A stretch of 5,000 bases of DNA, from the IMG/VR virus record IMGVR_UViG_2565956708_000003. One strand, given 5' to 3'. This document shows, in pieces, positions 1 through 5,000 of this stretch. The position numbers and the translations under genes are program-made. The notes beneath the pieces are model-generated. The model ran no database searches and was not told where the DNA came from. It saw only the letters and a program-made list of their open reading frames with translations. Source of the stretch: a virus (lineage: Duplodnaviria > Heunggongvirae > Uroviricota > Caudoviricetes). Each line of letters starts with the position of its first letter. Position 1 is the first letter of the stretch.

Positions 1-53
1 AAGCAGAAAAAGCTTATTATGCTTCCATCGGAAACGATGATCTGGCAGCCTGA
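1..53 (+). CDS. 3' end of the IS transposase orfB (partial, start outside window); frame uncertain
   Basis: Frame 3 reads AEKAYYASIGNDDLAA then stop (TGA 51-53), which looks like a transposase C-terminus ending shortly before the IRR. Frame 2 ends at 38-40 (SRKSLLCFHRKR-stop) and cannot be excluded. Not verifiable without the upstream sequence. Confidence 0.3.
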   Translation, partial: AEKAYYASIGNDDLAA

Positions 54-70
54 GTTCACAGATAAAACAC

Positions 71-95
71 TCTCCAGGAAACCCGGGGCGGTTCA
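71..95. repeat. Terminal inverted repeat (IRR) of the IS629-like element
   Basis: 25-nt terminus, 23/25 identical in inverted orientation to 4773-4797; mismatches only at the AA/TT dinucleotide in positions 15-16 of the repeat. Confidence 0.8.
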
Positions 96-941
96 ATCTT
101 TTGTGATCTGGTGTACGGAATTCACACCGGCAATGGTGAACGCATCACCAACCTGCAAGCCAGATGCAGATACCGTAATAGTCCCCTGTCGGTTATCAAC
201 TGGCATACCATTTGAATCTTTCGCTTCAACCTTGTGTTCAGGTTGGCCTGATACTGTCAAGGATTCAGTGCTTCCTTTCGGTAATCGACCAGAAATATCG
301 GTCTTGTAGCTATCGAAGGACGCAACCGGAGGGATTTGCGCTTTTTCGTATGCTGTCAGGGTTGCGCCCTGAGCATAGGCACGGTGACCAAGCTCGCCAG
401 CAAGGTCTTTGTAGTTGAAGGGGTTCCAGAAAGAGCGACGGTTGATACCCTGAGGTACACCAATCGCCGTCATGGTGGCATCAATACCTGCCGCACAGTT
501 CCACAAATCACGGCCCTGTGTACCTGCGGTTGAGTCAGCCATCGTGATCACGTTAGTAGCACGCTGCGTGACCATGGAAATCAGGTCAGAGTCAATCTGT
601 GCAGCAAGGCGCATACCTGCGGCGCGACCAGCTTCAGTTTTATGTTCCGGATCACGCATTTCACGCGCATCCAGAGTGTACAGAATGTTTTTCGGCTCCT
701 TGAACACTGAAGGAACAAGGCGCTGAACCAGTGCTGTTGGCGTTTTGCTGCTGAGGTCGAGGCCTTCCTCAATATTCATGTGGTAATGCTGCGGACGATA
801 CAGAACATCACCTGCTCGCTGCATTGCTGTATCACCGGGACGGAATTTTTTAGCGTTACGGGAAACTACGCAGGCGGCCTCAAAGCCTTCAACGTAGTTT
901 TCGAACATGATTTCAAGGTCTTTTGCTAATTGGTTAGCCAT
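93..941 (-). CDS. P22-like major capsid (coat) protein, N-terminal 282 aa only; C-terminally truncated at the IS junction, probably non-functional
   Basis: Translation aligns by eye with P22 gp5: [13 protein letters not shown] vs [41 protein letters not shown] vs [48 protein letters not shown] vs [46 protein letters not shown] vs [27 protein letters not shown]. P22 coat is about 430 aa, so roughly 150 C-terminal residues are missing. The stop TGA (93-95) lies entirely within the IS terminus. RBS GGAG (950-953, minus) sits 8 nt upstream of ATG (939-941). Confidence 0.8.
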   Translation of the reverse strand: [282 protein letters not shown]

Positions 942-959
942 GCTTAATGCTCCAATAGG

Positions 960-1853
960 TTATTTTTTTGCCTTTTTAGCGGCGAAATACGGCGTCCAGT
1001 CACCAGTTTCCAGCGCCTTGGCTTTCAATTTGTCGAGGTTGTTGATTACTGCGCCGTTGCTCCCCTTAACCGTCGGGGTTGTGGCTGCCGTGGTTTTTGC
1101 TTTTGGCATGATTCTGGCCTTCGATTCGATACGTTCCAGCAGACGACCAATTGCTACGGGGTTGGTAGCTTCTGCCAGTTGCTTGCGCAGTTCAGCGTTG
1201 CGACCAAGCGCCAGAACAACGATTTCCGGCTTCTCTGACTCAAACAGGATCGCGTTTTGTGTCTCGATGGGGATTTCCTCGAGTACGGCCTGCTCAGCTT
1301 CCTGATAGCCAGGAACTTTGAGAGCCTTAACACGTTGCTGATATTTGGATAATCGCTCTTGATAGGCAGCCTGAAGCTCCTGCTCCTTCTGCTTGCGAGC
1401 CATCTCCTGTTGCTGGTACTTGCCATTATCCTCTGCCCACTTAGCCATGCGTTGCTGGTAGATTTCTTCATCGAAACCGATGTCCTCATCATCCAGTTTT
1501 GGCATTCGCGGTGGTTGAGTGATTACCGGCTGCTGCTCGACGGGTTTCTGAGACTGACGCATCAGCTCTTTCAGCTCGCGGTCTTTCTCTTTAATCGTCT
1601 TGCGCAGGTGTTTTACCAGTCCATGCTCAGCGCCATCTTCGCTGGTTGGCGAATCCAGCTTTTCGTCACCAAAGTAGAATTCCTGTTCTGATTCGTCGTC
1701 ATCAGTTTCAGTAGCCTCCTCTGCATCATTGCCTGAGGACTCACTGCCATCTTCTGTTTCGACTTTTTCAGCCAGTTCGACATCATCAGGAATCTGCTCT
1801 GACGCGTCGGTTTCGATTTCAACTTCTGGTGTGTTTTCTGCCATCTGGTCCAT
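960..1853 (-). CDS. Phage scaffolding protein (P22 gp8-like), apparently full length (297 aa)
   Basis: Lies between portal and coat as in P22-like phages and is similar in size to P22 gp8 (about 303 aa). It has an acidic N-terminus, a central charged coiled-coil-like region rich in Q/E/K/R, and a basic C-terminal tail (KLKAKALETGDWTPYFAAKKAKK) resembling the P22 gp8 coat-binding C-terminus (...YRKLKAKLKGIR). RBS GGGG sits 6 nt upstream of ATG (1851-1853, minus). Sequence similarity to P22 gp8 is weak; the call rests mostly on synteny and architecture. Confidence 0.7.
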   Translation of the reverse strand: MDQMAENTPEVEIETDASEQIPDDVELAEKVETEDGSESSGNDAEEATETDDDESEQEFYFGDEKLDSPTSEDGAEHGLVKHLRKTIKEKDRELKELMRQSQKPVEQQPVITQPPRMPKLDDEDIGFDEEIYQQRMAKWAEDNGKYQQQEMARKQKEQELQAAYQERLSKYQQRVKALKVPGYQEAEQAVLEEIPIETQNAILFESEKPEIVVLALGRNAELRKQLAEATNPVAIGRLLERIESKARIMPKAKTTAATTPTVKGSNGAVINNLDKLKAKALETGDWTPYFAAKKAKK

Positions 1854-1943
1854 TTGTTACCCCTGTTTACTCGATGTTCAGCCCATCGGAAGGCAATAGG
1901 GTGCCAGGCCTCATAAAGACAGCCATTGCACGTTATGGGTTAA

Positions 1944-4142
1944 TTACTGCTGTGGTTGTTGCTGAGTTGATTTTTGCAGGATGCTGCTGATGTCCATGCG
2001 CTGCGCATGGCCCTGTGCCTGACTTTTCAGGACAAGCTCTGCATCAGCACGGGCATTGTCTCCTTGCTGTTGCTGGAACTGTCCGAGCAGTTTCAGAGCC
2101 TCGCGGATATCAGATTTCTGCTGGCTATCGGCAGATGCGAGGATTTTCACAACATTTGCCGCTGCAACCTGAGCATCAGTCTGTGCCTGGAATGCTTTAA
2201 CCTGAATGGCTGCCTGCTCGTTCTGCGCTTTCTGCAATTCAGCCTGACCAGCAAGAAGCTGACCTTGCGCAGCAACCATAGCCGGATCTGGCTGACTGGC
2301 CTGTTGTTGTTTCGCCTGCTCAACCATCTGCTGTTCTTCTGGCGTTCTCGGCTTGATAACTCCAGACAGAAGCAACTGATTGCGGTTGTATTCTTTAAGG
2401 TCGTCCATCCCTTCGCCGTCCATATTGTCGAGGATCATCGACGATACAAGGTCGTGTTTCGGCGTTCCGGGCGGGATAAGTGCCAGCATGGAAAGTAACG
2501 ACTTAACCGTTGCGTCACGGCGAGTAGCGAACGACTGACCGACATCGACAGTCACTTCATAGTTACCCTGCGAAAGGTCGTTAAGCGCGATAACCTGCCC
2601 TGTCTGACGGTCAACCACTTCACCAGTCATCAGCGCCACGTCATCGCTGCCGTCCTCATTAACGATACGCATCGGCGTATCGCTGCCATAGACTTCACGA
2701 GCCATAGAAAGCCACACAACGCCAGCGCGACGCATGGATTTAGCCATGTTGTCCATGTAGATATAGGACTGCGTATCCATCCGGTTAAAGATGCTATCAA
2801 CGGTATCGGTAGCAACGTTGCTCGGCATGTTCTCAAGCTGCGACGCACCTGTAATTTGCTGAATAGCCGTTCCGGTGTACTGCAATAGCCCGGCAAGAGC
2901 TGGAGGCATTTGTGTCGGAGGCGTATAACTGCTGACCTGAGCCTGCGCAGTAATATCTCCGTTTTTGTTTTTCAGACTGACCATCGGCAGGAACGCCGGG
3001 CGCTTTTTGTTGCGCTCCGCCCAATGAGTGGCGAGAGGACCAGGAATCATGTCAACATCAACTACAGGAATGCCATCACCGCCAGCCTGAGTAGCGTTAT
3101 CTGCAATCATGGAAACCATCAGGTTCTCAAGACGCTGTGCATCCATCGCTTTTGCTGCGTGGCCTTCGATTCGTTCCTGATTATCAACAAATGAGCGACG
3201 TCCATATACCGGGATGAGAGGAATATGTTCGCCCGGAATACGCTTCGGTTCTTCCAGCCATTCAGCGCCAGACAGAAGGCCGCAATAAACGCGGCGTTTC
3301 TTCACCGTTCGCTCGCCAATCAGTTCGAATGCACCATCGGTCAGCTCGTCGACAATATCTTTGATTTGCTCTTCATCATAGATTGCCGTTTCTCCGCTAA
3401 CAGGGTTGCGCCATGCCGTGAGCTTCACCTTCTCTATGCGAACTTCGTAGTAGCGCCCAACATAGATGGCATCTGGCGTTGACCAGTCATATTGAGTGCC
3501 AGTCTCATCACGAGAAAGGCCTGCCGCGATGGAATCAGGGTATTCAGCCTCGAACGCTTTAGGCGTCATGGAGAACATTTCCATAGCCCACATAGCATCA
3601 GAACGGTCATATTGCTTGCTGTCCTGATCGAAGAAGACGCATGTCGCTGGGTCGTAAACAGGAAGAAGGCTGATGCGTCGCTGCTCGTTACTTGGGTCCA
3701 TTTCATCTTCGTAATCGGCACACATGCGGAAACAACCGAATCCGCCCGTTACAGCATCATCAAATGCGTTATCACACGCTTCGCCACCTGATGTTTCCTG
3801 ATAGTCAGCGCGGAATTTGCCGTTCATCTTTTTGGCTAACGCTTCCGATGCCTTGTCATCCTTCGGCCTGAATTTAACGCTGATGCGATTCTGTCGATAC
3901 TCGCCAATGATGCGATCACATTCACGGGCAATCTTATTCAGTTCAAAGCGCGGGTAATGCTCAAACCTGCCTTCATCAAATGAGTAACCAGCGTTTGTGC
4001 TGCCTTCCCACTGTGCGCCGGATACCCGGACGAAACGTTGAGCCTCAATAATCTGCTCACGCATATCCTGCGTTGCTGACCAGGCATTATCAAAGTTGCA
4101 CAGCACCTTGCGATGCCAGTCAGTCATCTTTTTTTCTGCCAT
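1944..4142 (-). CDS. Phage portal protein, P22 gp1-like (732 aa) with long C-terminal helical extension
   Basis: Long collinear similarity to P22 gp1 (725 aa): DYEDEMDPSNEQ...DQDSKQYDRSDA vs DYEDQSPTSNNQ...DSNSKLMDKSDA; IGERTVKKRRVY vs IAERQIKRRRVY; GEHIPLIPVYG vs GEHIPIVPVFG; C-terminus PRTPEEQQMVEQAKQQQASQPDPAMVAAQGQLLAGQAELQKAQN vs [44 protein letters not shown] and DNARADAELVLKSQAQGHAQRMDISSILQ vs [29 protein letters not shown]. The start ATG (4140-4142) is separated by 1 nt from the upstream gene's stop (TGAtATG). Confidence 0.93.
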   Translation of the reverse strand: MAEKKMTDWHRKVLCNFDNAWSATQDMREQIIEAQRFVRVSGAQWEGSTNAGYSFDEGRFEHYPRFELNKIARECDRIIGEYRQNRISVKFRPKDDKASEALAKKMNGKFRADYQETSGGEACDNAFDDAVTGGFGCFRMCADYEDEMDPSNEQRRISLLPVYDPATCVFFDQDSKQYDRSDAMWAMEMFSMTPKAFEAEYPDSIAAGLSRDETGTQYDWSTPDAIYVGRYYEVRIEKVKLTAWRNPVSGETAIYDEEQIKDIVDELTDGAFELIGERTVKKRRVYCGLLSGAEWLEEPKRIPGEHIPLIPVYGRRSFVDNQERIEGHAAKAMDAQRLENLMVSMIADNATQAGGDGIPVVDVDMIPGPLATHWAERNKKRPAFLPMVSLKNKNGDITAQAQVSSYTPPTQMPPALAGLLQYTGTAIQQITGASQLENMPSNVATDTVDSIFNRMDTQSYIYMDNMAKSMRRAGVVWLSMAREVYGSDTPMRIVNEDGSDDVALMTGEVVDRQTGQVIALNDLSQGNYEVTVDVGQSFATRRDATVKSLLSMLALIPPGTPKHDLVSSMILDNMDGEGMDDLKEYNRNQLLLSGVIKPRTPEEQQMVEQAKQQQASQPDPAMVAAQGQLLAGQAELQKAQNEQAAIQVKAFQAQTDAQVAAANVVKILASADSQQKSDIREALKLLGQFQQQQGDNARADAELVLKSQAQGHAQRMDISSILQKSTQQQPQQ

Positions 4143-4143
4143 A

Positions 4144-4772
4144 TCAACCTACACCACAAGGAATTGAGTAACTGGAATAGTCGGGTTGCGCAGCCGACTC
4201 CGGGCAATGCATACACATCATCAGCGCATCAGCCAGGTTAGGAGATGGGATACCGAGCTTCTGCTTCATTTCGACCTTAGTCATAAGCTCCAGTTTCCCG
4301 TTATTATTGAATTTGCGCTGAATCTGCGTCAGTTCTGCAAACAGTTTCTCCAGCATCTTCTCGCCTATCGCTTCTTTGTCGAAGCTCAGCATGTCGTCGG
4401 GGTCTGCATACTCACCGTGGACAACCGCCCGATATGTCAGATACAGCCTGTCAGCCAGCGCGTAATAGAATTGCGCTCGCTTATTGCGGAATACATCGCC
4501 AATAGTGCGAACGTTGTCACCCTGTACGACTTCATCAGCCCATGCTCCGGCCTGATACGGAGCATCTTCATCGAATGGCGATTCGCTGCCCTTGAACATC
4601 GTGGCGGTAATTTTCTTGCCGGAGAATGCTTCCGTTGTCTGTCTGCGTAGCCCTGCACCGACACCATCGCCATCCCACAGGTAATGGTCAGCGCCGTCTT
4701 CAATCGCCAGCGAAGTAGCCCAGTCAGCACCCTCGTTGATGTCCATCAGCAGACCTTCGGCAATGCGCTTAA
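4144..4772 (-). pseudogene. Large terminase subunit (TerL), C-terminal nuclease-domain fragment of about 209 codons; N-terminal ATPase domain removed at the IS junction
   Basis: Sits immediately upstream of portal with a 1-nt gap, as TerL does in P22-like phages. It contains a C-terminal ...LGIPSPNLADALMMC... motif resembling the conserved acidic motif near the end of terminase nuclease domains. The reading frame is open from the IS boundary (4772) through the first Met (4746) to the stop at 4144-4146; the frame continues upstream into the IS for 8 codons before a stop, with no native start. TerL proteins are about 450-500 aa, so roughly 290 N-terminal residues are absent. Confidence 0.72.
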
Positions 4773-4797
4773 TGAACCGCCCCGGGAATCCTGGAGA
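4773..4797. repeat. Terminal inverted repeat (IRL) of the IS629-like element
   Basis: TGAACCGCCCCGGGAATCCTGGAGA; begins with TG, 23/25 inverted match to 71-95, and lies 29 nt upstream of the orfA ATG. Confidence 0.85.
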
Positions 4798-4826
4798 CTA
4801 AACTTCCTGAGAAAGAGGTAAACAGG

Positions 4827-5000
4827 ATGACTAAAAATACTCGTTTTTCCCCCGAAGTCCGTCAACGGGCAGTCCGTATGGTTCTGGAAAGTCAGAGCGA
4901 ATATGACTCACAATGGGCGACAATTTGTTCCATTGCTCCAAAGATTGGCTGTACGCCGGAGACTCTGCGTGTCTGGGTTCGCCAGCATGAGCGGGATACC
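4827..5000 (+). CDS. IS3-family transposase OrfA (N-terminal 58 codons; continues past window end)
   Basis: ATG at 4827 with upstream AGAGG; the translation is a typical IS3-family OrfA N-terminus with an HTH region ([18 protein letters not shown]). The frame is open to the window edge. Confidence 0.9.

Follow-up and report, generated by a model that had tools for sequence, protein, structure and literature searches.

The question raised by this locus is whether a piece of a terminase gene that lies directly against a portal gene should be regarded as a gene in its own right or as one part of a larger gene. The stretch analyzed here (hereafter the window) comprises 5000 nucleotides of the Caudoviricetes record IMGVR_UViG_2565956708_000003 from IMG/VR, and it holds near one end the C-terminal part of the gene for the large terminase subunit (terL), which a preliminary description had interpreted as an orphan fragment of the nuclease domain, with only the C-terminal 200-odd codons of TerL remaining. 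We are highly confident that the fragment is the downstream half of a terL gene that was split by an insertion sequence (IS) in a CUS-3 (P22-like/Sf6-like) prophage of Escherichia coli, i.e., a recent pseudogene and an instance of prophage decay. The features at the terL end of the window, including the 200-amino-acid (aa) open reading frame (ORF) at issue, are as follows.

4144–4772, minus strand: 3′ part of terL, gene nucleotides 788–1416 of 1416, encoding K264–G471 plus the TGA stop; a partial RNase H-like nuclease domain
4144–4746, minus strand: 200-aa ORF from the internal Met272 of TerL, annotated by gene callers as a separate gene
4140–4146, minus strand: terL stop/portal start junction TGAtATG, in its native arrangement
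4770–4772, no strand: terL nucleotides 788–790 (TTA when read on the gene strand), one of the two copies of the 3-bp target-site duplication
4773–5000, plus strand: left end of a 1310-bp IS3-family IS (IS629/IS1203-like), whose left inverted repeat starts TGAACCGCCCCGGG; orfA runs from 4827 and gives an HTH_Tnp_1 Pfam match

Across positions 96–4772 (4677 bp) the window is 100.0% identical, with zero substitutions, to phage CUS-3 (CP000711, host E. coli RS218), and a megablast search against complete E. coli genomes returned hundreds of 100% matches (e.g., UTI89), each bounded exactly at 96 and 4772. Both this nucleotide identity and the gene order terS-terL-portal-scaffold-coat, which was followed in the intact UTI89 prophage (L001; L numbers denote the loci compared) and in the IS-bearing L003, identify the DNA as that of the P22-like CUS-3 prophage. 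The fragment itself matches UTI89/CUS-3 terL nucleotides 788–1416 with 100% DNA identity, its protein is 100% identical to residues 264–471 of the 471-aa TerL of CUS-3 and the UTI89 prophage, and it is identical to Sf6 gp2 across residues 264–453, which bears out its earlier assignment to the C-terminal nuclease-domain region of TerL. The native terL sequence ends at 4772 and the IS begins at 4773, with the codon at 4771–4773 spanning the junction and eight further codons (4774–4797) read from the IS inverted repeat. On the minus strand the frame runs without interruption from 4797 down to its TGA (4146–4144), and a TAG at 4800–4798 closes it upstream. It had been described as retained in frame, and it is indeed open, but this carries no evolutionary meaning, as zero substitutions relative to CUS-3 over the 4677 bp imply that there was no time for decay. 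The portal ATG (4142–4140) stands one base past the terL TGA, and the same stop/start arrangement occurs in the intact UTI89 prophage (terL 10049–11464, portal 7849–10047), so the junction had been rightly recognized as native.

The remainder of the gene was found in the source assemblies, where loci bearing the junction were retrieved by looking up exact protein matches to the truncated coat ORF (described below) and to the 200-aa ORF. The whole window has an exact reverse-complement match in L003 (GCA_964052585.1, a 4.97-Mb chromosome) and in L004 (GCA_000494955.1), whilst L005 (GCA_000460015.1) matches positions 96–4772 exactly and carries both of the IS insertions. In L003 the order is terL nucleotides 1–790, the 1310-bp IS, and terL nucleotides 788–1416, with a 3-nt overlap and no deletion, and both flanks match the intact UTI89 terL at 100% identity. 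The same upstream piece (terL nucleotides 1–790, 100% identical) lies directly beyond the IS in L003, L004, L005, and L011, and the fragment is hence no orphan; the statement that only its C-terminal codons remain is true just inside the 5-kb window, since the N-terminal 263 codons are found just past the 1310-bp IS. This upstream half forms an open 316-aa ORF (L003 4070–5020) made of TerL residues 1–263 and 53 IS-derived residues, with the complete ATPase domain (Pfam Terminase_3) and the catalytic residue D244 both on this half; if made during induction, its product would be a shortened ATPase lacking most of the nuclease domain. The terL/IS junction was spanned in none of 5426 complete RefSeq E. 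coli genomes (megablast), and an exact search of a species-representative genome collection for it returned nothing.

The element at the junction has the properties of the IS629/IS1203 group of the IS3 family, namely a length of 1310 bp, aligned imperfect TG...CA inverted repeats, orfA and orfB, a −1 frameshift, and 3- or 4-bp target duplications. Its full first copy occupies L003 4860–6169 and encodes an orfA product of 108 aa (HTH_Tnp_1) and an orfB product of 295 aa (rve domains). Its sequence shares 96.3% identity with the annotated copies of IS1203 in E. coli O111:H- 11128. Identical copies are present in many E. coli genomes, and there the annotation reads “IS3 family transposase”, with a programmed frameshift and an AL1L pseudoknot, as it does for a 99.9%-identical copy in L019. 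A second copy (L003 10847–12156) has the same orientation and differs from the first at one base (99.92% identity), and its right end enters the other side of the window.

1–95, plus strand: right end of the second IS copy, with the last 17 orfB codons and the right inverted repeat ending ...CCCGGGGCGGTTCA; orientation as in the copy at 4773
96–99: 4-bp coat target duplication, AGAT, beside the IS end at 1–95
93–941, minus strand: truncated coat gene, native nucleotides 1–846 (282 codons) being window 96–941, with the stop codon supplied by the IS end

The truncated coat ORF matches Pfam P22_CoatProtein over profile positions 1–288 of 423. By blastn, coat nucleotides 1–846, the second IS copy, and coat nucleotides 843–1254 follow one another with a 4-bp duplication in L003, L004, and L005, and the 3′ part of coat differs by 2.4% from UTI89. 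Because the 4677 bp between the elements are unchanged relative to CUS-3 and a single base separates one IS copy from the other, both insertions are recent. The terL′-portal-scaffold-coat′ block of 4677 bp is thereby bracketed by direct IS repeats, a composite-transposon-like layout that is a ready substrate for recombinational deletion.

These observations point to a simple course of events. A 1310-bp IS3-family element transposed into terL at codon 263/264 and split the gene without deleting anything; the upstream half kept the ATPase domain and, with catalytic D244 included, the initial 51 residues of the nuclease domain, and the 200-aa ORF arose as a by-product. Another copy of this IS interrupted coat, 4.7 kb farther downstream, and the outcome is a defective prophage able neither to package DNA nor to build a capsid. 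With coat split there is no procapsid, and the prophage is therefore defective whatever happens at terL. On induction of the late operon, Q-antiterminated transcription would probably read through the IS and across the fragment. Any product started at Met272 would be without D244 and also, if the standard RNase H topology applies, without the strand bearing this residue, and would thus be catalytically dead and probably misfolded.

The kind of event is already known, being the disruption of a gene in the well-known prophage CUS-3 by an IS629/IS1203-type element. The same kind of element interrupts other prophage genes, such as stx2 in O157:H7 (stx2::IS629) and the scaffolding gene of a P22-like prophage in O111:H- 11128 (IS1203), and there, as here, the genes are split into annotated pseudogene halves; NCBI's pipeline PGAP likewise gives the pseudogene label to phage genes that an IS has split in a comparable way. 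The window differs from these cases in its IS, which is 96.3% identical to IS1203 and is labeled by PGAP just as “IS3 family”, and in its target, codon 263/264 of CUS-3 terL. It also resembles cryptic or defective prophages under IS-mediated decay in having several IS copies and direct repeats around the head genes, yet it stands very early in that process, since the phage DNA that the IS copies enclose is without substitutions relative to functional CUS-3. For annotation, the 200-aa ORF beside portal should be recorded not as a gene but as the 3′ half of a terL pseudogene interrupted by an IS, and the prophage, with terL and coat each in two pieces, should count as defective. CUS-3 encodes NeuO, the O-acetyltransferase of the K1 capsule (PMC3046976). 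In strains carrying CUS-3, insertions of this type would halt virion production while the rest of the prophage stays in place, which is routine decay and involves no new mechanism.

Whether the fragment may nonetheless be expressed was considered at the level of transcription and of translation. A consensus scan of the minus strand over 4747–5000 found no sigma-70-like site upstream of the 200-aa ORF. In an induced lambdoid stx2 prophage that carries an IS629 insertion, late transcripts have been detected beyond the element (PMC7430833), and by analogy it is plausible that Q-dependent late transcription crosses the IS and covers the fragment on prophage induction. The sole start codon in the frame of the fragment is the ATG at 4746–4744, just after gccGAAGGtctgctg, giving the 200-aa product, which is called as a gene in L003–L006 and L011–L018. 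The preliminary description had reported this Met behind a GAAGG resembling a Shine-Dalgarno (SD) sequence, and both are present, but the predicted anti-SD pairing of −3.5 kcal/mol is at background when set against the mean of −2.35 (standard deviation 2.43) for all 122 ATGs on the same strand, and the SD at 4746 is thus not better than that of a chance ATG. Predicted pairing at the scaffold, coat, and terS starts ranges from −5.6 to −6.6 kcal/mol, and stands at −2.2 for native terL (L003 4070) and −3.9 for portal (4142). The weak terL and portal SDs fit translational coupling from terS through terL to portal. The weakness of the portal SD makes it plausible, to judge from the sequence, that translation of the fragment could drive coupled initiation of portal, as had been proposed. 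Ribosomes on the N-terminal half of terL would stop inside the IS, and portal translation would therefore probably be reduced by the insertion (a polar effect).

The related loci form a decay series, from the intact CUS-3/UTI89 prophage, through terL::IS with an intact coat gene (L011), to terL::IS plus coat::IS as in the window, and finally to the deletion in E. coli AH19K002. L011 (GCA_964053155.1, 7875–15059) shares the terL::IS junction of the window and has an intact coat gene, which suggests that terL was hit before coat. In AH19K002 (L019, NZ_CP196258.1, 8411–10862), terL nucleotides 1–787 are followed by the IS and then by gp10 from nucleotide 1064 to its end; the 3′ half of terL, portal, scaffold, coat, and the 5′ part of gp10, the gene for the packaged-DNA stabilization protein, have been lost. 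Since its left junction lies 3 bp from that of the window, the AH19K002 insertion into terL is probably independent. An identical 200-aa ORF also remains behind other lesions, i.e., the same IS at terL nucleotides 757–760 with a 4-bp duplication (L012, 8634–9943), another element at terL nucleotides 742/743 (L016, 1–125; L017, 1–27), a W233* nonsense change (L014, 1649–3064), and a frameshift (L015, 9187–10603). An IS hot spot at terL nucleotides 742–790 was considered and rejected, as exact-match retrieval with the 200-aa ORF favors lesions just upstream of Met272. Because the loci were retrieved in this way, the clustering of lesions probably reflects ascertainment and is evidence neither for a hot spot nor for selection.

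This recurrence bears on the possibility that the fragment was co-opted, with Met272–Gly471 hindering superinfecting CUS-3/Sf6-like phages, for example by occupying the docking sites for TerL on portal or by poisoning terminase assemblies, and being selected beside portal. The 200-aa ORF does recur through several independent disruptions of terL, and it keeps the native C-terminus and portal junction; yet we hold this explanation to be highly improbable, as the recurrence is mostly the product of exact-match retrieval, the zero divergence from CUS-3 leaves selection no time, and the related AH19K002 prophage deleted the fragment along with portal, scaffold, and coat. Both a dedicated promoter and a strong SD are absent, and no experimental precedent was found in this analysis. 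A more specific version, in which Met272–Gly471, made for instance by late read-through across the IS, would act as a catalytically dead, dominant-negative decoy on the portal or terminase and block packaging by superinfecting CUS-3/Sf6-like phages, seems to us to have only the slimmest chance of being correct; if true, an IS-made gene fragment would serve as an accidental anti-phage factor.

The reading in the preliminary description, in which the fragment would act as a free-standing terminase nuclease domain without its ATPase partner (a nuclease or toxin if expressed), depends on how much of the domain is present. In the RNase H-like topology the first catalytic Asp stands on the central beta-strand. 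Intact TerL and Sf6 gp2 (PDB 4IDH) differ by one substitution over residues 1–453 and share the same numbering (phmmer, E = 0). The Sf6 nuclease-domain construct gp2C spans residues 213–470, and its active site consists of the acidic triad D244/D296/D444, which binds two metals, together with N441 and K428, with D244 coordinating both metal ions (PMC4678813). The motif contexts in TerL are AHDPSD for D244, WDGDG for D296, and NLADAL for D444, and the SPNLADALMM stretch that had been singled out as a nuclease motif does contain N441 and D444 of the Sf6 gp2-type active site. The fragment therefore has much in common with Sf6 gp2 and CUS-3 TerL (4IDH full length; 5C10/5C12/5C15 for gp2C), including the numbering, the N441/D444 helix, D296, K428, and the 1-nt stop-start junction with portal, but unlike them it is without residues 1–212 (the ATPase domain, with Walker A/B, which is not in the same polypeptide) and 213–263, cut off by the 1310-bp IS. 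An alignment with Sf6 gp2 had been proposed in which missing catalytic acidic residues would count against the nuclease reading; D296, K428, N441, and D444 are all retained, but D244, encoded upstream of the break between codons 263 and 264, is not, and the triad is incomplete, an outcome that counts in part against that reading. Nor is the complete domain (213–470) present, as the fragment starts at K264 and lacks its first 51 residues, roughly one fifth of the domain, and a product from Met272 would lack 59. A profile search, also suggested earlier, does match Pfam Terminase_3C, albeit at 23 bits and below the 26.7 cut-off; the match covers only profile positions ~48–152 and is sub-cut-off even for intact TerL, and the domain boundaries used here are hence those given by the structures of Sf6 gp2 and the publications on it.

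An active free-standing nuclease is very unlikely on this comparison, because the fragment is without D244, the ligand of both metals, and loss of the strand bearing it should also damage the fold. In the G20c TerL the three metal-binding aspartates, and with them the equivalent of D244, are “indispensable for catalysis”, and even complete isolated nuclease domains are weaker than the full-length protein (SPP1) or inactive (P22) (PMC5389553). The retained residues, the ATG with its possible weak SD, and the prediction of the 200-aa ORF by gene callers speak for an orphan nuclease, but with the ATPase half only 1310 bp off, residues 213–263 absent, no promoter-like site upstream, and an SD at background, we consider its probability to be close to nil. 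No observation contradicts our structural interpretation of an IS-split pseudogene. The effect of losing residues 213–263 is deduced from what has been published on the active site and from the RNase H topology in its standard form, and a single-sequence AlphaFold2 model of residues 264–471 was uninformative (mean predicted local distance difference test score 36.5) and was not used. Whether the locus is transcribed and translated from Met272, and whether its product has any activity left, is likewise a matter of inference.

That the IS-phage junctions are mis-joined IS repeats around a terL that is really intact has a negligible probability, for although multi-copy IS often break or mis-join short-read assemblies and many of the retrieved contigs end within the IS (L006–L008, L016–L018), the same junctions with clean 3- and 4-bp duplications occur in three independent assemblies, one of them a 4.97-Mb chromosome-scale sequence, and independent short-read contigs also run across the junction into the IS ends.

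All sizeable genes of the window are on the minus strand, and between the two interrupted genes lie two intact ones.

1944–4142, minus strand: portal gene, intact, 732 aa, Pfam P22_portal (PF16510, E 2e-169)
960–1853, minus strand: scaffolding protein gene, intact, 297 aa, annotated as scaffold or scaffolding in CUS-3, Sf101, and others

A Pfam search with the scaffolding protein (960–1853) gave no match. An Rfam scan found no match in the portal-scaffold intergenic stretch (1854–1943, 90 nt), and was likewise empty over the whole window. Elsewhere in the prophage, further related IS3-family copies were seen in L011 (1–1017), L013 (464–918), L019 (244–1553), and L004, among them a 98–99% identical variant upstream of ninB. 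In L004, IS ends at 18967–19025 and 20151–20244 interrupt the gp16 ejection-protein gene. Judging from these sequences, the prophage is heavily colonized by the IS family found in the window.

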